Source: a virus. From it: a stretch of DNA of 25,380 bases. The stretch is taken from the UHGV virus genome UHGV-0112510; one strand, written 5' to 3'. Under the pieces are notes generated by a model that was not told the DNA's origin, searched no databases, and saw only the letters and a list, made by a program, of their open reading frames with translations. The stretch's first letter is position 1; each line of letters begins with the position of its first letter. Of this stretch, positions 6,852 to 25,380 are shown one piece after another. The position numbers and the translations under genes are program-made.

Positions 6852-6926
6852 GGGTCAGTCGTATAAAGGTCATTACGGAAGGCTGTTAACCTTCTTATCG
6901 TGGTTCGAGTCCACGCTGTCCCGCCA
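6852..6926 (+). tRNA. tRNA-Asn (anticodon GUU)
   Basis: Hand-folded cloverleaf: acceptor GGGTCAG/CTGTCCC (one U-U mismatch), anticodon stem GAAGG/CCTTC with loop CTGTTAA, T-arm CGTGG-TTCGAGT-CCACG, encoded CCA. Anticodon loop and T-loop resemble E. coli tRNA-Asn. D-stem is only 3 bp. Confidence 0.55.
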
Positions 6927-6931
6927 AACAT

Positions 6932-7007
6932 GCTGGTTTAGCTCCAATGGTAGAGCGGTCGCCTTGTAAGCGAATGGGTAGCGGTTCAAGTCCGTTAACC
7001 AGCACCA
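6932..7007 (+). tRNA. tRNA-Thr (anticodon UGU)
   Basis: Acceptor GCTGGTT/AACCAGC perfect; D-arm GCTC-CAATGGTA-GAGC; anticodon loop CTTGTAA; T-arm AGCGG-TTCAAGT-CCGTT; discriminator A plus CCA. Confidence 0.7.
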
Positions 7008-7249: not shown

Positions 7250-7573
7250 ATGAAGATGCCAGAAAAACATGACCTGTTAGCCGCCATTCTCGCGGCAAAG
7301 GAACAAGGCATCGGGGCAATCCTTGCGTTTGCAATGGCGTACCTTCGCGGCAGATATAATGGCGGTGCGTTTACAAAAACAGTAATCGACGCAACGATGT
7401 GCGCCATTATCGCCTGGTTCATTCGTGACCTTCTCGACTTCGCCGGACTAAGTAGCAATCTCGCTTATATAACGAGCGTGTTTATCGGCTACATCGGTAC
7501 TGACTCGATTGGTTCGCTTATCAAACGCTTCGCTGCTAAAAAAGCCGGAGTAGAAGATGGTGGAAATCAATAA
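7250..7573 (+). CDS. S: holin/antiholin, lambda S (class I, dual start)
   Basis: 107 aa, [34 protein letters not shown]..., essentially lambda S as remembered; Met1-Lys-Met3 dual-start motif. Confidence 0.95.
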
Positions 7574-8033
7574 TCAACGTAAGGCGTTTCTCGATATGCT
7601 GGCGTGGTCAGAAGGAACTGATAACGGACGTCAGAAAACCAGAAATCATGGTTATGACGTCATTGTAGGCGGAGAGCTATTCACTGATTACTCCGATCAC
7701 CCTCGCAAACTTGTCACGCTAAACCCCAAACTCAAATCAACAGCAGCCGGACGTTACCAGCTTCTTTCCCGTTGGTGGGATGCCTATCGTAAGCAGCTTG
7801 GCCTGAAAGACTTCTCTCCGAAAAGCCAGGACGCTGTGGCATTGCAGCAGATTAAAGAGCGTGGCGCTTTACCGATGATTGATCGCGGTGATATCCGTCA
7901 GGCAATCGACCGTTGCAGCAATATCTGGGCTTCACTGCCGGGTGCTGGTTATGGCCAGTTCGAGCATAAGGCTGACAGCCTGATTGCAAAATTCAAAGAG
8001 GCTGGCGGAGCGGTCAGAGAGATTGAGGTATGA
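7557..8033 (+). CDS. R: endolysin, lambda R lytic transglycosylase
   Basis: 158 aa, [39 protein letters not shown]..., near-identical to lambda R as remembered. Confidence 0.95.
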
Positions 8034-8497
8034 GCAGAGTAACCGCGATTATCTCTGCTCTGGTTATCTGTATCATCGTCTGCCTGTCATGGGCTGTTAA
8101 TCATTACCGTGATAACGCCATGACCTACAAAGAGCAGCGCGATAAAAAAGTCAGTGAGCTGAAGCAGGCGACTGCCACCATTACTGACATGCAGCAGCGC
8201 CAGCGTACTGCTGATGCACTTGATGCTAAATACACGAAGGAGTTAGCTGATGCGAAAGCTGAAAATGATGCTCTTCGGCGCAAGCTTGATAATGGTGGCA
8301 GGGTGCTCGTCAAAGGAAAATGCCCTGTGCCATCCTCAGCCGAAACCTCCGGCGCCTCCGGCATGGGCAATGATGCCACCGTCGAACTCTCTCCAGTTGC
8401 TGGACGAAACGTTCTCGGTGTCCGGGACGGAATTATCCGCGACCAAACAGCACTGAGAACGCTTCAGGAATACATCAGGACGCAATGCCTTCGATGA
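8030..8497 (+). CDS. Rz: i-spanin Rz
   Basis: 155 aa; N-terminal TM ([18 protein letters not shown]) and first ~90 aa lambda-Rz-like; C-terminal third divergent. Confidence 0.85.
8250..8456 (+). CDS. Rz1: o-spanin Rz1 lipoprotein, embedded in the +1 frame of Rz
   Basis: [21 protein letters not shown]... with a lipobox (VAGC) and Pro-rich mature part ([11 protein letters not shown]); entirely within Rz. Confidence 0.75.
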
Positions 8498-11782: not shown

Positions 11783-13981
11783 ATGGCAGAAAAAAAGATG
11801 ACTGACTGGCATCGCAAGGTGCTGTGCAACTTTGATAATGCCTGGTCAGCAACGCAGGATATGCGTGAGCAGATTATTGAGGCTCAACGTTTCGTCCGGG
11901 TATCCGGCGCACAGTGGGAAGGCAGCACAAACGCTGGTTACTCATTTGATGAAGGCAGGTTTGAGCATTACCCGCGCTTTGAACTGAATAAGATTGCCCG
12001 TGAATGTGATCGCATCATTGGCGAGTATCGACAGAATCGCATCAGCGTTAAATTCAGGCCGAAGGATGACAAGGCATCGGAAGCGTTAGCCGAAAAAATG
12101 AACGGCAAATTCCGCGCTGACTATCAGGAAACATCCGGTGGCGAAGCGTGTGATAACGCATTTGATGATGCCGTAACGGGCGGATTCGGTTGTTTCCGCA
12201 TGTGTGCCGATTATGAAGATGAAATGGATCCGAGTAACGAGCAACGCCGTATAAGCCTTCTCCCTGTTTACGACCCAGCGACATGCGTCTTCTTTGATCA
12301 GGACAGCAAGCAATATGACCGCTCTGATGCTATGTGGGCTATGGAAATGTTCTCCATGACGCCTAAAGCGTTCGAGGCTGAATACCCTGATTCCATCGCG
12401 GCAAGCCTTTCTCGAGATGACACTGGCACTCAATATGACTGGTCAACGCCAGATGCCATCTATGTTGGACGCTACTACGAAGTTCGCATAGAGAAGGTGA
12501 AGCTCACGGCGTGGCGCAACCCTGTTAGCGGAGAAACGGCAATCTATGATGAAGAGCAAATCAAAGATGTTGTTGACGAGCTGACCGATGGCGCATTCGA
12601 ACTGATTGGTGAGCGGACAGTGAAGAAACGCCGAGTTTATTGCGGTCTTCTGTCTGGTGCTGAATGGCTGGAAGAGCCGAAGCGTATTCCGGGCGAACAT
12701 ATTCCTCTCATCCCGGTATATGGGCGTCGTTCATTTGTTGATAATCAGGAGCGAATAGAAGGCCACGCAGCAAAAGCGATGGATGCACAGCGTCTTGAGA
12801 ACCTGATGGTTTCCATGATTGCAGATAACGCTACTCAGGCTGGCGGTGATGGCATTCCTGTAGTTGATGTTGACATGATTCCTGGTCCTCTCGCCACTCA
12901 TTGGGCGGAGCGCAACAAAAAGCGCCCGGCGTTCCTGCCGATGGTCAGTCTGAAAAACAAAAACGGAGATATTACTGCGCAGGCTCAGGTCAGCAGTTAT
13001 ACACCTCCGACACAAATGCCTCCAGCTCTTGCCGGGCTATTGCAGTACACCGGAACGGCTATTCAGCAAATTACAGGTGCGTCGCAGCTTGAGAACATGC
13101 CGAGCAACGTCGCTACCGATACCGTTGATAGTATCTTTAACCGGATGGATACGCAGTCCTATATCTACATGGACAACATGGCTAAATCCATGCGTCGCGC
13201 TGGCGTTGTGTGGCTTTCTATGGCGCGTGAGGTCTATGGCAGTGATACGCCGATGCGTATCGTTAATGAGGACGGCAGCGATGACGTGGCGCTGATGACT
13301 GGTGAAGTTGTTGACCGTCAGACAGGGCAGGTTATCGCTCTTAACGACCTTTCGCAGGGTAACTATGAAGTGACTGTCGATGTTGGTCAGTCGTTCGCTA
13401 CTCGCCGTGATGCAACGGTTAAGTCGTTACTTTCCATGCTGGCACTTATCCCACCAGGAACGCCGAAGCACGACCTTGTATCGTCGATGATTCTCGACAA
13501 TATGGACGGCGAAGGGATGGACGACCTTAAAGAATACAACCGCAATCAGTTGCTTCTGTCTGGAGTTATCAAGCCGAGAACACCAGAAGAACAGCAGATG
13601 GTTGAGCAGGCGAAACAACAACAGGCCAGTCAGCCGGATCCGGCTATGGTTGCAGCGCAAGGTCAGCTTCTGGCTGGTCAGGCTGAATTGCAGAAAGCGC
13701 AGAACGAACAGGCAGCCATTCAGGTTAAAGCATTCCAGGCACAGACTGATGCTCAGGTTGCTGCGGCAAATGTTGTGAAAATCCTCGCATCTGCCGATAG
13801 CCAGCAGAAATCTGATATCCGCGAGGCTCTGAAACTGCTCGGACAGTTCCAGCAACAGCAAGGAGACAATGCCCGTGCTGATGCAGAGCTTGTCCTGAAG
13901 AGTCAGGCGCAGGGCCATGCGCAGAGCATGGACATCAACAGCATCCTGCAAAAATCAACTCAGCAACAACCACAGCAGTAA
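11783..13981 (+). CDS. portal protein (P22 gp1-like)
   Basis: 732 aa; blocks shared with the P22 portal from memory (KKRRVY, EHIPLIPVYG, DPAMVAAQGQLLAGQAELQKAQNEQ); Gln-rich C-terminal helical barrel region. Confidence 0.95.
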   Translation: MAEKKMTDWHRKVLCNFDNAWSATQDMREQIIEAQRFVRVSGAQWEGSTNAGYSFDEGRFEHYPRFELNKIARECDRIIGEYRQNRISVKFRPKDDKASEALAEKMNGKFRADYQETSGGEACDNAFDDAVTGGFGCFRMCADYEDEMDPSNEQRRISLLPVYDPATCVFFDQDSKQYDRSDAMWAMEMFSMTPKAFEAEYPDSIAASLSRDDTGTQYDWSTPDAIYVGRYYEVRIEKVKLTAWRNPVSGETAIYDEEQIKDVVDELTDGAFELIGERTVKKRRVYCGLLSGAEWLEEPKRIPGEHIPLIPVYGRRSFVDNQERIEGHAAKAMDAQRLENLMVSMIADNATQAGGDGIPVVDVDMIPGPLATHWAERNKKRPAFLPMVSLKNKNGDITAQAQVSSYTPPTQMPPALAGLLQYTGTAIQQITGASQLENMPSNVATDTVDSIFNRMDTQSYIYMDNMAKSMRRAGVVWLSMAREVYGSDTPMRIVNEDGSDDVALMTGEVVDRQTGQVIALNDLSQGNYEVTVDVGQSFATRRDATVKSLLSMLALIPPGTPKHDLVSSMILDNMDGEGMDDLKEYNRNQLLLSGVIKPRTPEEQQMVEQAKQQQASQPDPAMVAAQGQLLAGQAELQKAQNEQAAIQVKAFQAQTDAQVAAANVVKILASADSQQKSDIREALKLLGQFQQQQGDNARADAELVLKSQAQGHAQSMDINSILQKSTQQQPQQ

Positions 13982-20312: not shown

Positions 20313-21668
20313 ATGGCTACTTGGCAAGGAACAAACGGCGGATTGTTGGCTGGTATCGGCGGCGTCAACTCAAACGCTCCGAGCGTAAATGACATCGGCA
20401 ATACGCTTCAGCTTATCAGGCAGAACAATGATATTGAGCGTTCAGGCGCTAACAATGTTGGACTGACGGCCTTGCAAGGTCTTTCAGGTATTGCGGGTGT
20501 TTTTCAGCAGGAAAAGCAGGCTCAGCGGCAGAAAGAATTTCAGCAGGCATACGCTAATGCTTATGCGTCTGGTGATCGCGGTGCTTTGCGTCAGTTGGCT
20601 ACTCAATATCCAGACCAGATTGAATCCGTTCGTAAAGGCATGGGATTCATTGATGAAGACCAGCGTAATTCTATCGGTACATTAGCGGCTGGCGCTCGTC
20701 TTGCGGCATCGTCTCCAGAAGCAATGCAATCATGGCTGCAAAATAACGCCAAGGAACTGACTCGCGTCGGTGTTGACCCTAATAACGTTGCTCAGATGTA
20801 TCAGCAGAATCCTTCAGGATTTGGTGAGTTTGTTGATCACCTTGGAATGGCTGCTCTTGGTCCGATTGATTACTTCAATGTTCAGGACAAGATGGCTGGT
20901 CGTGAGATTGATCGCGGAAAACTTGCAGAGACAATCCGCAGCAATCAGGCTGGCGAGGTGCTAACAGCACGAGGTCAGAACATCACGATGCGCGGCCAGG
21001 ATTTATCGATGCAGAGAGCATCAATGAAAGGGTCGGTTGGGAATAATGAGCGTACAGTTCAGTTAGCAGATGGCAGAACTGTAACGGTAGGCGGGAAGCT
21101 TCACGGCGCTGGGGCTAATGCGTTCTACGAAGGTATCGACAACGAGGGGAATATGGTTCGCGTTCCTGCCAGTTCAATCGCTGCTCCTGCAACATCGTCT
21201 GCATCAGCACAAAACTATGCCATGAAGAAGGATATCGACGCGATCGCAAATGCAGACGCTTCTGCTCTCGATTTCATGACAGGAATGACAGGCGGTGCAG
21301 GTAATCCAGCAATTGGTGCTGATGTTCGCAGCCGATTAACGGGAAAAGAGCAGCGCCAGTTATATAACTCAGCACAACGTATTCAGGGCAGAATGCAGAA
21401 TCAGGGTGTGGCGGCAGCAAGGGACATGGGTGCCAGTGGTATTAACACCGTTGCAGAAGCGAAGATGTATTTTCAGGGGATGCCGCAGGTTGACTATTCA
21501 AGCCCGGAGGCTATGCAGCAGTCGATTCGTGAGATTCAGGAATACACCAACAATTACAACCAACAATATAACGTTAATGTTGGTAAATCTCAGCGGAAGC
21601 AATCTCAACCTGCACAGGTATCACAGCCAGCAGCCAGCAGTAACTTTTCTTCACTATGGGGTGATTAA
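20313..21668 (+). CDS. ejection protein, P22 gp20-like
   Basis: 451 aa; order and composition consistent with gp20. Confidence 0.75.
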
Positions 21669-23773
21669 TGGCTAAAGCATGGAAAGATGTTATCGCCTCT
21701 CCACAGTATCAGGCGTTAGCACCAGAACAAAAAGCGCAGGCTCAGGAGCAATACTTCAATGAAGTCGTTGCCCCGCAAGCCGGAGAAAGTGTAGAGCAGG
21801 CTAAGCAGGCTTTTTATGCTGCCTATCCACTACCATCAACGAATGAAATAGACCGATCCCAATCAGCAACTCAAAATATTCAACATACATCATCTGATAA
21901 TTCTCTTGCGTCAGGGTATGCAAAGTTAGCTACTCAGCAAAGAGAGGGGCTTGAGCGTTCAGCAGAACAGGGAGCCAGTCTTGGGGCTGCGATGCGCGAT
22001 GCTATAACAGGCGAAAGCCGAATGACTCCAGAGATGGAGAGACTGCAAAATGTCACCTCTGCCCCAGAATTGAACTCACTAAGCATGGATGCCCTAAAGG
22101 CTGGATGGTCTCAACTTTTCGGCTCTGACGCGTCTCAGGAAAAGATTCTTCAGGGAATGGGGGCGACATTAAGGCAGGATGAGAAGGGGAATACTATCGT
22201 TTCTCTGCCATCAGGTGATTATGCCCTGAACAAGCCGGGTTTATCACCGCAAGACCTGACTTCGTTTCTTGCTAATGCGTTGGCGTTTACACCAGTGGGC
22301 AGGGCTGGAACGGTGCTTGGTGCCATAGGAAAATCAGCAGCTACAGATTTAGCACTACAGGGAGCCACCAGCCTTGCTGGTGGAGAAGATATTGATCCGT
22401 TACAAACGGTAATTTCTGCTGGCATTGGTGGTATTGGTAAGGGGCTGGAAAATACAGCGAGTGCGGTTTCGAGGGCTGTTCGTGGTGATATGTCGCCTGA
22501 AGCAAAGGCTGCTGTCGACTTTGCATCGGAAAGAAATCTGCCGTTAATGACCAGTGACATGCTGAAAGATAAAACCTTTATGCAGAGTCAGGCTCAGACA
22601 TTAGGCGAAAGAGTTCCTTTTTTTGGAACCGGTAAGAATCGGCTGAATCAACAACAAGCACGAGAAAATTTAGTCAGAACATTTAGCGATGGTCTGGGTG
22701 GCATTTCTGATAAACAGCTTTATGAATCTGCGACTAAAGGGCAACAAAAATTCATTGAGGCAGCAGGAAAGCGATATAACCGCATAATTGACGCTATGGG
22801 GGATACCCCTGTCGATCTCTCAAACACGGTAAAAGCTATCGACAATCAGATTGCCGTGTTAAGCCGCCCGGGCAAATCTCAGGATAGAGCCGCGGTAAAA
22901 GTCTTGCAGCAATTTAAAGACGATATCACCAGCGGACCAAATGACCTGCGTCTGGCGAGGGAAAACAGAACCGATCTTCGAAAGCGATTTATGGCGTCAT
23001 CTGACACTGTTGATAAAGATACGCTCCAGAAAGCCAGCGATATTATCTACAAGGCATATACGGCGGATATGAAAAAAGCCGTAGCCAAAAATCTTGGAGC
23101 AGACGAAGCCATTAATATGGCAAGGGTTGATCGCTCATGGTCTAAATTCAATGACATGATGGGAAGAACGCGCGTTCAAAAGGCAATAGCCAGCGGCAAG
23201 GCCACGCCTGAGGATGTAACAAAACTCGTTTTTAGCCAAAGCCCATCAGAACGTTCTCAGCTTTACAGGCTTCTGGATGACAATGGTAGGCAAAACGCAC
23301 GAGCAGCCATAGTTCAGAATGCTGTAGATAAGGCGACTGATCCGTCTGGAAATATCAGTGTTGAGAAGTTTATTAATGCGTTACACCGGAACAGGAAGCA
23401 ATCAGCAACTTTCTTTAAAGGCGTACATGGAAAGGAACTGGACGGCGTTATTAAATACCTCAACGATACAAGACACGCGGCAAAAGCGAACGTTCAAAAC
23501 TTAAATGGTCAGCAGCTTTATGGATTGTTAGTTGGTGGTGGCATCATAAACGCAGCAGTATTAGCGGGGATGCTAAAAACGGCTGCGTTTGTTGTTCCTG
23601 CTGCTGGTGCCGTAGGCGGAGCAGCGAAGGCATACGAAAGCCCTGTTATACGAAATGCCTTGTTACGTCTGGCAAATACGCCAAAAGGTAGCACAGCATA
23701 TGACAGAGCGATCAGTACGGTCACACAATCGCTCACCAGAGTCGCACAGGCATCACAAAAAGAAGCTCAATAA
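21668..23773 (+). CDS. ejection protein, P22 gp16-like
   Basis: 701 aa; last of three consecutive ejection-protein genes; hydrophobic Gly/Ala-rich segment near the C-terminus (LLVGGGIINAAVLAGMLKTAAFVVPAAGAVGGAA). Confidence 0.75.
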   Translation: MAKAWKDVIASPQYQALAPEQKAQAQEQYFNEVVAPQAGESVEQAKQAFYAAYPLPSTNEIDRSQSATQNIQHTSSDNSLASGYAKLATQQREGLERSAEQGASLGAAMRDAITGESRMTPEMERLQNVTSAPELNSLSMDALKAGWSQLFGSDASQEKILQGMGATLRQDEKGNTIVSLPSGDYALNKPGLSPQDLTSFLANALAFTPVGRAGTVLGAIGKSAATDLALQGATSLAGGEDIDPLQTVISAGIGGIGKGLENTASAVSRAVRGDMSPEAKAAVDFASERNLPLMTSDMLKDKTFMQSQAQTLGERVPFFGTGKNRLNQQQARENLVRTFSDGLGGISDKQLYESATKGQQKFIEAAGKRYNRIIDAMGDTPVDLSNTVKAIDNQIAVLSRPGKSQDRAAVKVLQQFKDDITSGPNDLRLARENRTDLRKRFMASSDTVDKDTLQKASDIIYKAYTADMKKAVAKNLGADEAINMARVDRSWSKFNDMMGRTRVQKAIASGKATPEDVTKLVFSQSPSERSQLYRLLDDNGRQNARAAIVQNAVDKATDPSGNISVEKFINALHRNRKQSATFFKGVHGKELDGVIKYLNDTRHAAKANVQNLNGQQLYGLLVGGGIINAAVLAGMLKTAAFVVPAAGAVGGAAKAYESPVIRNALLRLANTPKGSTAYDRAISTVTQSLTRVAQASQKEAQ

Positions 23774-23777
23774 CTGG

Positions 23778-23800
23778 TTAGCCATGGATGGCTAATTTTT
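23778..23800 (+). terminator. terminator hairpin at the convergence of gp16-like and the minus-strand membrane gene
   Basis: TTAGCC-ATGGAT-GGCTAA followed by TTTTT (23796-23800). Confidence 0.5.
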
Positions 23801-24211
23801 GTTCTTTGCTCTCATCCATAGGTAAAGAAGGGAAAGAACAAGACAAAAAACAGAGAATAGATAACCTACCTCATATGGTGCGCCAAAAAAATTAGCTATT
23901 GATACGGGCAAAAAAGCTGACGCGATCAAAATTGAAAGGCAAAAAATAAGCCCAGTAATATAGTTTATTAAATTCTTAAATGAGAAACGTTTTGCTTGAT
24001 TTACGGTCTTAACGAACGATCGCTTAACGACGGATAAAAGCAAATAGATGGCGACAGTTGCTAATGCCCCTTTCCACCAGTCTGGATATAGTTTTGCGAC
24101 AATCAGACCAAGGAAAACCATGATGACAGCCTGAGCATTCACACCAACCCTCCCTTTAGCTTTGTTTAGAATGGCAATCATCATATATCCAAGACATGGC
24201 ATTTGGTACAT
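23792..24211 (-). CDS. small integral membrane protein (4 predicted TM helices), moron; possible superinfection-exclusion type function
   Basis: 139-aa minus-strand ORF, convergent with the structural operon; locally AT-rich; four hydrophobic segments; basic C-terminus; no recognised homolog. Confidence 0.7.
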   Translation of the reverse strand: MYQMPCLGYMMIAILNKAKGRVGVNAQAVIMVFLGLIVAKLYPDWWKGALATVAIYLLLSVVKRSFVKTVNQAKRFSFKNLINYITGLIFCLSILIASAFLPVSIANFFGAPYEVGYLFSVFCLVLSLLYLWMRAKNKN

Positions 24212-24335
24212 AGCTTGGGTCGGGATTTCAAATCCGATCCCCGTTGATGGGGCCGTTACAGTACGCGCATATCCGCTTTATGTGAAACAGGAAGATTTTT
24301 CTGATATCACTGCCACAGCAAAACACCAATTTCGA

Positions 24336-24351
24336 GACAAGTACGCGCGCG
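24336..24351. repeat. 16-bp direct repeat copy 1 (GACAAGTACGCGCGCG)
   Basis: Exact match to 24623-24638; a partial third copy (CAGTACGCGCA) lies near 24260-24272. Confidence 0.6.
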
Positions 24352-24361
24352 AGGGGTATCA

Positions 24362-24381
24362 GTTGCAAAAAATTTTGCAAC
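24362..24381. promoter_or_regulatory. perfect 20-bp palindrome GTTGCAAAAAATTTTGCAAC (candidate dimeric protein binding site)
   Basis: 9-bp arms GTTGCAAAA/TTTTGCAAC with a 2-bp centre; 11 bp downstream of direct repeat copy 1. Confidence 0.3.
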
Positions 24382-24622
24382 TACGTCCGACCAGTATGCA
24401 CACGATGGCGGGGGGATACCATAAAACTGTTCTCTACATGAGACAGAGTGGTGGTGATGTGTTGATTATCGGCGTATATGCGCACAGGACGCGCTATGAC
24501 GATGTTTTATGCGGGTACACCAATCACATGTATCTGGTGTGATAAATCGCGTTACATGACCTCTCATGTTGTACTGGTGGTTATCACGACGTTCTGAATC
24601 TGGCCTTTGCCTGGTATTTTGC

Positions 24623-24638
24623 GACAAGTACGCGCGCG
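24623..24638. repeat. 16-bp direct repeat copy 2 (GACAAGTACGCGCGCG)
   Basis: Exact copy of 24336-24351, 287 bp away; flanking context also similar (TTCGA / TTGC before GACAAG). Confidence 0.6.
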
Positions 24639-24984
24639 TAGCATCGAAATAATCGGATGGCGTATGCTGCTGGTAATATGAAGACCGATAGCATTAACCG
24701 TAAGGAGAAAGACTTCTCGATAACGGCAAGGGGGCTGAATTGCGAGGCGAGATTAAGCAACTGTCTTGAACGTAAAAATCATGGAGCAACATGATGGTAC
24801 GATTCATTCCATTCTTCGTTCTTTCTGAGCATTGCGTTCAGGCTTAGTCAAAATTAGTGTTGCGAGCGGACCTATTAGTAATTGTTGGTGCGATGCGTCT
24901 GTTATGGATTGTTATGGTTGTGGCAGGCCTGATTAATATCCAGTATGACCACCAGCTATGAGAGGCCACCTCAGTGGTTCGCAG

Positions 24985-25040
24985 TTGCAGGTTTGCACTC
25001 AGGTTCGCAGGGTTTTGGCTACTTTCACGTGCGAACCTGC
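24985..25040. other. long imperfect hairpin / inverted repeat in apparently non-coding DNA
   Basis: TGCAGGTTTGCAC (24985-24997) pairs with GTGCGAACCTGCA (25028-25040), 13 bp with one G-U; 30-nt loop containing a further GGTTCGCAG repeat; no adjacent T-tract on either strand. Confidence 0.35.
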
Positions 25041-25175
25041 AGAATTGCAAAGGACAACTAAGTCCTCTGGCCAACTCCCGGTTTATGAGCGACACAGTCC
25101 GCCTGGCGCATCGTTTTCGTCGAGTGCGCCCATCAGCTTGTCCATGGACTATCCACCACTCGATATTAAAGCTAA

Positions 25176-25361
25176 TCATTGGTTGCCAGCCCGCGAATCA
25201 AGTTTGTTCTGGATCCAAGCTTCAACCTCCTCAAGCGACCATCTAGCTGATCTACCAATTTTAACTGGCTGTGGAAACGTGCCCGTCTTAACCCATGAGT
25301 AGATTGCCGTTTTCTTGAAGCCCGTTCTGAGCATGACTTCGCTTAATTTGATAAGGCGCAT
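25176..25361 (-). CDS. alpA: AlpA-family transcriptional regulator / excisionase-like DNA-binding protein
   Basis: 61 aa, MRLIKLSEVMLRTGFKKTAIYSWVKTGTFPQPVKIGRSARWSLEEVEAWIQ...; canonical AlpA/Vis-type winged HTH signature; RBS AGAGGAG upstream on the minus strand (plus coords ~25366-25372). Confidence 0.85.
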   Translation of the reverse strand: MRLIKLSEVMLRTGFKKTAIYSWVKTGTFPQPVKIGRSARWSLEEVEAWIQNKLDSRAGNQ

Positions 25362-25380
25362 AGAGGCTCCTCTGCTTTAG

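Follow-up and report, generated by a model that had tools for sequence, protein, structure and literature searches.

A convergent GTG-initiated gene lies behind gene 16

The window, which is the whole stretch of 25,380 nucleotides of the virus genome UHGV-0112510 that was analysed, carries a P22-like late region with a lysis cassette, terminase, portal, scaffold, coat, gp4, gp10, gp26, gp14, gp7 and genes 20 and 16. The ORF list gave a minus-strand ORF at 23792..24211 that converges on gene 16 with a stop-to-stop gap of 18 bp. The sequence-only reading took this ORF for a 139-aa convergent gene and for the only gene opposite to the structural operon. Its strand and convergence were borne out, and no other minus-strand gene abuts the operon, but alpA_1 is also encoded on the minus strand, and the length and start codon were revised as follows. 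By direct reading of the sequence, a GTG at 24142 is preceded at 6 nt by the Shine-Dalgarno sequence GGGAGG, and AGGAGG or GGGAGG is kept 6 nt before the GTG in the copies from Escherichia coli, Edwardsiella tarda and Yersinia enterocolitica. The Yersinia copy has an in-frame stop 13 codons 5' of the GTG with no alternative start between them, and the four distant homologues (36-38% identity) all begin with MN(A/G/Y)Q, i.e. MNxQ. In addition, the same GTG is the start of four alternative genes at this locus, whose DNA diverges directly after it (BLAST break points at 24137/24139 between the window and the backbones with alternative alleles). These results collectively indicate that the product has 116 aa rather than 139 aa. 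Judged by these comparisons, the 23 extra N-terminal codons of the longer reading are leader sequence, which the RefSeq calls of 129/130 aa likewise include.

Table 1. Features at and around the convergent gene of the window.
Feature	Position	Strand	Remarks
tRNA-Asn(GTT) and tRNA-Thr(TGT)	6852-7007		In the prophage part, ahead of its lysis cassette
Gene 20-type ejection protein	20313..21668	+	Pfam Inj_translocase, E 2e-77
Gene 16-type ejection protein, 701 aa	21668..23773	+	PHROG 770 'DNA transfer protein' and others; gp16 Pfam family in homologous loci
Hairpin TTAGCCA[TGGA]TGGCTAA	23776..23797		Between the convergent genes, overlaps the ORF stop; from the terminator scan
CDS, four-helix membrane protein (predicted), 116 aa	23792..24142	-	GTG 24142-24140, stop TAG 23794-23792
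Conserved upstream region	24143..24647	-	96-100% identical across backbones with four different genes at the GTG; aligned with L009, L010 and L011
Shine-Dalgarno GGGAGG	24149..24154	-	Within the leader homologous to the P22 sieA leader (AAAACTAAGGAGGTTGGTGTG); compared with P22, L003, L004 and L005
Candidate -10 TATGAT	24180..24185	-	43 nt 5' of the GTG, poor -35; consensus match only
Spacer between slot and alpA_1, ~1 kb	24143-25175		96-100% conserved among islands; non-coding by 1-nt indels
23-nt direct repeat ATTTyGmGACAAGTACGCGCGCG	24329-24351 and 24616-24638		In the spacer
9-bp inverted repeat GTTGCAAAA-AA-TTTTGCAAC	24362-24381		In the spacer
alpA_1-type gene of the AlpA family, as in EcCIMP1-like satellites	25176..25361	-	Pfam Phage_AlpA, E 2e-13; ~1 kb upstream of the ORF

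Pairwise comparison with the E. coli, Edwardsiella and Yersinia copies gave dN/dS values of 0.13-0.47 at dS of up to 1.3, which argues that the ORF is protein-coding and under purifying selection. The AT-richness remarked on earlier was confirmed: the GC content of the ORF is 0.379 against 0.491 window-wide, the GC minimum of the whole window falls on it, and only 0.2% of 351-nt windows are as GC-poor. The sequence-only reading had proposed to look for an upstream promoter, but no convincing one came to light in the window. The promoter scan of the window called none at the ORF, and a separate scan returned weak consensus-level candidates only, such as TATGAT with its poor -35.

The conserved region upstream of the GTG is non-coding, as 1-nt indels show. 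The same indels, in L010 and L011, break a plus-strand ORF at 24162-24542 (126 aa, annotated as WP_001444474.1 in some RefSeq genomes), which is probably not a gene. A 72-nt match of 24659-24730 to cyanophage terminase genes was dismissed as chance rather than a tRNA or att remnant, and Rfam gave no match on 23600-25380. The repeats in the spacer may serve as regulator sites, as an origin or as a packaging signal.

The product is a predicted four-helix inner-membrane protein

Four helices (H3-18, H22-47, H55-85 and H90-115) come out of both the hydropathy analysis and the AlphaFold2 model, and the basic C-terminal tail MRAKNKN follows them. Six K/R residues lie in the loop between helices 2 and 3 and three in the tail, compared with one in the loop YPDWW and none in the loop SIANFFGAPYEV. 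By the positive-inside rule, this pattern places both termini and the central loop in the cytoplasm and the two short aromatic loops in the periplasm. The product is thus a predicted inner-membrane protein with four transmembrane helices and N-in/C-in topology, in agreement with the four hydrophobic helices and basic tail first read from the sequence. Among the invariant residues of the family are K17-L18-Y19-P20, where helix 1 ends, F53, Y61, G64, L65, F67, P79 and R111, and the homologues at 36-38% identity retain the AKLYP motif along with the protein length and the helices. AlphaFold2 reached a pLDDT of 57 with 7 sequences and 64 with 10; since the latter value is only 64, the model was taken for helix positions only. 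A Foldseek search of viral structures returned nothing with E<0.8. Holins made up its top rows, and at E>=0.8 we read these as a generic small-helical-protein signal rather than as holin identity.

The gene belongs to a small family linked to gene 16

Searches of Pfam, PHROGs, NCBIfam, PADLOC and PDB sequences with the protein gave no meaningful match, and megablast and tblastn against 50,697 deposited phage genomes left the ORF without a match; within that collection no cultured phage is known to carry the family. The statement that the protein has no recognisable homolog therefore holds for all of these collections. Identity with SMR/EmrE, GtrA, holin, RexB, colicin-immunity or T4 Imm proteins was rejected on the same footing, there being no match in Pfam (E<=1) or NCBIfam. 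The plasmid search yielded one match only, a mislabelled chromosome, and a scan of GTDB species representatives found no copy of the locus. A word-indexed search of 5.8 billion proteins recovered 22 clusters, all labelled 'hypothetical', and an exhaustive profile search of 1.84 billion representative proteins recovered seven clusters, which make up the whole family. By these searches, the family is new and very small. A literature search on the RefSeq accession, or on satellites with ejection proteins, turned up the EcCIMP1 papers alone.

The conserved upstream piece is present in 565 of 5,426 complete E. coli genomes and is accompanied by the ORF, as a satellite-type copy, in 165 of the 5,426. 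Roughly 57 more E. coli genomes were estimated, from evenly spaced rows of the match list, to hold a prophage-type copy. Carriage thus comes to ~3-4% of complete E. coli genomes, a figure that rests partly on the estimated prophage-type count.

We compared 26 genomic contexts, ten obtained via protein look-ups (E. coli prophages, Yersinia, Edwardsiella and metagenome contigs) and sixteen from IMG/VR contigs. In every one of them the ORF stands tail-to-tail with a gene 16 of the same type, at gaps of 17 to ~24 bp; cut C-terminal gp16 fragments that Pfam missed were recognised by BLASTP at 61-63% identity to gp16 of the window. Two settings were found. One consists of full P22-like prophages with gp10 and a tailspike head-binding domain, in which the ORF is 86-88% identical to that of the window and a tailspike gene follows. 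The other consists of satellite-type islands with a primase, alpA_1 and PerC, in which the ORF is 95-100% identical to that of the window and stands alone, with no partner gene. The order primase-(SSB)-gp20-gp16-ORF also occurs in Edwardsiella tarda (L003).

The prophage-type loci L005-L008 and L029-L035 carry a same-strand set of Peptidase_S9 (333 aa), a DUF805 membrane protein and a ClpP-like protease (178 aa), with the ORF last. The set sits between gene 16 and the tailspike gene and could form a moron or defence unit of several, so far uncharacterised, genes.

The window joins a P22-like prophage to an EcCIMP1-like satellite

Positions 1 to ~21837 of the window are ~95% identical to several E. 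coli P22-like prophages, and positions 21606-25380, with gp16, the ORF and alpA_1, are 99.9% identical to EcCIMP1-like islands. The BLAST junction puts the switch at ~21606, 62 nt before the gene 20 stop. With its left 21.6 kb of P22-like prophage and its satellite-type right end, the window is therefore a hybrid. This join was found in no complete genome, and no tailspike gene follows in the window. Both element types integrate at thrW. If a helper prophage and a satellite stood in tandem, a deletion running across the gp20/gp16 junction that they share could have given the hybrid; the join could also be a mis-assembly of a draft contig. Whatever its status, the prophage-type loci (L004-L008 and L028-L035) place the family in complete P22-like prophages as well. 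The gene had been described as a moron of a P22-like phage. This is only part of the picture, as the DNA of the window allele itself is that of an EcCIMP1-like satellite and not of a prophage right arm.

The P22-like phage Kapi1 mobilises EcCIMP1, a phage-inducible chromosomal island (PICI) at thrW whose genes include integrase, alpA, antirepressor, Ash, primase, 'DNA transfer' genes, alpA_1 and PerC (Pick et al., 2025, PMC11773190). The island gives added superinfection immunity against its helper Kapi1, an effect seen only in helper lysogens, and no defence system of a known kind was recognised in the island; the slot after gp16 is not discussed in that work (Pick et al., 2025, PMC11773190). 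The islands with the window allele have in common with EcCIMP1 the thrW site, integrase, antirepressor, Ash, TOPRIM/DUF927 primase, gp14/gp7, alpA_1, PerC and pRiA4b-ORF3, several of them as identical protein accessions, and positions 24217-25380 of the window have 98.4% DNA identity with EcCIMP1 of strain MP1. However, the gp16 of EcCIMP1 in strain MP1 is another one, of 906 aa, and is followed not by the ORF but by a gene for a 232-aa lipoprotein. EcCIMP1-like satellites (L001, L002, L009-L011 and L021-L027; L003; L016) carry their own gp14/gp7/gp20/gp16 genes after the primase gene, and their gp20-gp16-slot module is mosaic, with a gp16 of 701, 705 or 906 aa.

The locus corresponds to that of sieA in P22-like elements

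P22 sieA (13336-13830, minus strand) lies 22 bp beyond gene 16 and converges on it, and for the ORF the gap is 18 bp; both genes thus lie directly after gene 16 and point towards it. The gp16 C-terminus YES..RN.LLRLANT is common to the window, P22 and HS1. Furthermore, the leaders are alike: that of P22 sieA reads ACAAAACTAAGGAGGTTGGTGTG, that of the L003/L005 copies of the ORF GGAAAACTAAGGAGGTTGG(T/C)GTG, and that of the window ORF AAACAAAGCTAAAGGGAGGGTTGGTGTG. An extended -10 (TGgTAnnnT) is found 28-29 nt 5' of the start in P22, L003 and L005.

On the other side, the hairpin between the convergent genes is followed, in the direction of gene 16, by TTTTTGTT, which makes it a probable terminator of the late operon; possibly it acts in both directions. 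Its core, CCA[TCCN]TGG, lies at the 3' edge of every cassette and overlaps the stop codon, in P22 sieA included, and the fourth pair of the hairpin shows a compensatory G-C to A-T change. In all cassette types this core is kept in sequence and not just in pairing, beyond what a plain terminator would need, and it may mark a recombination boundary of the cassette. The core was seen at the same spot in 11 other loci, among them P22 (near 13313-13336).

Between these flanks the genes themselves are exchanged. Towards gene 16, two of the four backbones compared keep 93.7-99.5% identity, and the upstream side is as conserved as Table 1 states, with a different gene at the GTG in each backbone. The window allele is the four-helix protein of 116 aa. 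The L009 allele encodes a 132-aa secreted protein with a signal peptide (PHROG 2651, function unassigned). The L010 allele encodes another 4-TM protein, which has only the first ~33 residues in common with that of the window and is ~28% identical overall. The L011 allele encodes 204 aa with 33% identity to the functional type-B SieA of HS1 (E 2e-11) and 29% to P22 SieA, contains NRYPGEAR, and falls into PHROG 7745 'SieA-like'. The L011 backbone is 99.5% identical to the window downstream and 96% upstream, yet it has this SieA-like gene at the same GTG. In addition, EcCIMP1 of MP1 has its lipoprotein gene after gp16 on the gp16 strand, opposite to the orientation of the ORF. Every product found at or beside the slot is, from its sequence features, an envelope protein. 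We also considered that the cassette type tracks the gp16 allele; this was rejected, as the same gp16 occurs with three different cassettes.

Homology of the flanks on both sides, together with the exchange for a SieA-like gene at the same GTG, identifies the ORF by its sequence context as an unrelated gene that takes the place of sieA in P22-like elements. The idea that the position of the gene implies exclusion gains weight from this, as the ORF lies in the sieA slot between homologous flanks and has a SieA-like allele in backbones that are 96-99.5% identical. With four unrelated envelope proteins exchanged exactly from start to stop while the flanks are conserved, the slot would be a clean defence-cassette hotspot inside the virion gene cluster.

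The product is not a SieA homologue by sequence, profile or motif

BLASTP of the protein gave E values of 0.84 against P22 SieA and 6.1 against HS1 SieA, and hhalign of the family against a SieA alignment (types A and B plus a B-like protein) gave a probability of 0.5%. The protein had no PHROG match at E<=0.1, whereas the controls from P22, HS1 and L011 do match PHROG 7745. The cytoplasmic SieA motif FxRYPxEAxxFNK is absent: the protein ends with ...LLYLWMRAKNKN and has RYPxEA nowhere, while the allelic L011 protein has the motif as NRYPGEARRARK. With no similarity in sequence, profile or motif, the ORF is not a SieA homologue by the tests used.

SieA of types A, B and C (PHROG 7745) is a small polytopic membrane protein, as is predicted for the ORF product. 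SieA proteins have 162-212 aa and 3-4 helices, compared with 116 aa and four helices here, and their block of injection has been shown experimentally, while for the ORF protein it is proposed by analogy. Three SieA types are recognised, and just 22 of 66 P22-like phages have a sieA homologue; the contents of the slot in the phages that lack sieA are not described there (Leavitt et al., 2024, PMC10883804). From its place in the sieA slot, the ORF protein would probably be a new kind of exclusion protein unrelated to SieA.

A candidate blocker of P22-like DNA delivery

The function that we consider most likely, and put forward tentatively, is that of an inner-membrane blocker of P22-like DNA delivery that has replaced SieA in its slot. 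The protein would be made from the resident prophage or satellite in the lysogen, would be placed in the inner membrane by its predicted helices and would stop the entry of DNA from incoming P22-like virions. By analogy with SieA, it may do so by interfering with the insertion or function of the gp20/gp16 ejection-protein conduit. As the ORF is strictly linked to gene 16 and uses the sieA leader again, the ejection proteins are its likely target, with gp16 as the presumed target class. An exclusion role is favoured by the place and orientation of sieA, the homology of the flanks, the cassette exchange, the gene 16 linkage, the topology, the purifying selection and the AT-richness, which is usual for morons, as well as by the superinfection immunity that a satellite of the EcCIMP1 type gives against its P22-like helper. 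Against it count the missing similarity to SieA, the weak promoter candidates, the AlphaFold2 pLDDT of 64 and the absence from the deposited phage genomes. Position alone is no proof of function, as morons of many kinds occur between genes 16 and 9 and one allele of the slot is a secreted protein.

That diversity of morons would also suit a membrane protein with no part in exclusion, such as a host-fitness or lysogenic-conversion factor, a small toxin or an accessory to the ejection proteins of the element itself, and constant company with one gp16 type is what physical linkage or a role in serving gp16 would produce as well. We regard this as unlikely. The same gp16 allele (93.7-99.5% DNA identity) occurs with three unrelated cassettes, which indicates that gp16 does not depend on the ORF protein and makes an accessory role unlikely, and the ORF is transcribed against the late operon, unlike an accessory of virion assembly. 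Additionally, a Pfam search at E<=1 linked the protein to none of the SMR, GtrA, holin, RexB and colicin-immunity families, and the phage's own lysis cassette lies elsewhere (ORFs 7250-8497).

Quite improbable, in our estimate, is an anti-phage factor of the envelope that works otherwise than by a SieA-like block, either as an abortive-infection effector of the kind of a RexB-like pore or by excluding unrelated phages. A small 4-TM protein in a variable slot of a prophage or satellite would fit this too, and where the ORF closes the Peptidase_S9/DUF805/ClpP-like set it could be part of a multi-gene system; the restriction of EcCIMP1 immunity to helper lysogens also hints at a more complex mechanism. 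However, PADLOC, Pfam and NCBIfam gave no match to defence components, the ORF has no partner gene in satellite-type loci, and the gene 16 linkage and the reused sieA leader indicate the ejection proteins. Lambda RexB is a 4-TM inner-membrane prophage protein of ~144 aa that requires RexA and acts by abortive infection. It resembles the ORF protein in its four helices and similar size, but here there is neither a RexA-like partner nor sequence similarity. T4 Imm and HK97 gp15 are small inner-membrane proteins, encoded by phage or prophage, that halt DNA translocation across the inner membrane and leave adsorption unaffected; Imm has ~2 helices and HK97 gp15 has one. Their sequences are unrelated to the ORF protein, they belong to different phage types, and the ORF protein has no Pfam match to Imm-type families.

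A chance ORF in an AT-rich spacer would agree with the bare 'hypothetical protein' of the databases and with the differing starts of the gene callers, but the low dN/dS at high dS, the Shine-Dalgarno and GTG kept across genera and the distant homologues with the same length, helices and AKLYP refute it as far as computation reaches and leave it a very slight probability.

Apart from SieA, no blocker of podovirus ejection-protein conduits has been characterised. If the favoured reading of an injection blocker is right, an unrelated protein evolved for the sieA slot would give an independent probe of how diverse gp16/gp20 are recognised, and the ORF protein would be a concrete candidate class for superinfection immunity of the EcCIMP1 type. 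A bolder version, which we hold to be doubtful, is that the sieA slot, with its leader, fixed GTG and hairpin, is a hot-swappable site for exclusion cassettes common to P22-like helpers and PICI satellites. The 4-TM protein would then be a structurally new injection blocker acting at the gp16/gp20 conduit, and the satellite copies would be weapons in a three-way conflict. Under this version, a satellite would exclude incoming helpers while carrying its own variable gp20/gp16, which would account for satellite-mediated superinfection immunity of the EcCIMP1 kind. In MP1 itself, the 232-aa lipoprotein (MIKNLLLILSLSLLAGC..., L021 12632-13330) is a candidate for the superinfection immunity of EcCIMP1.
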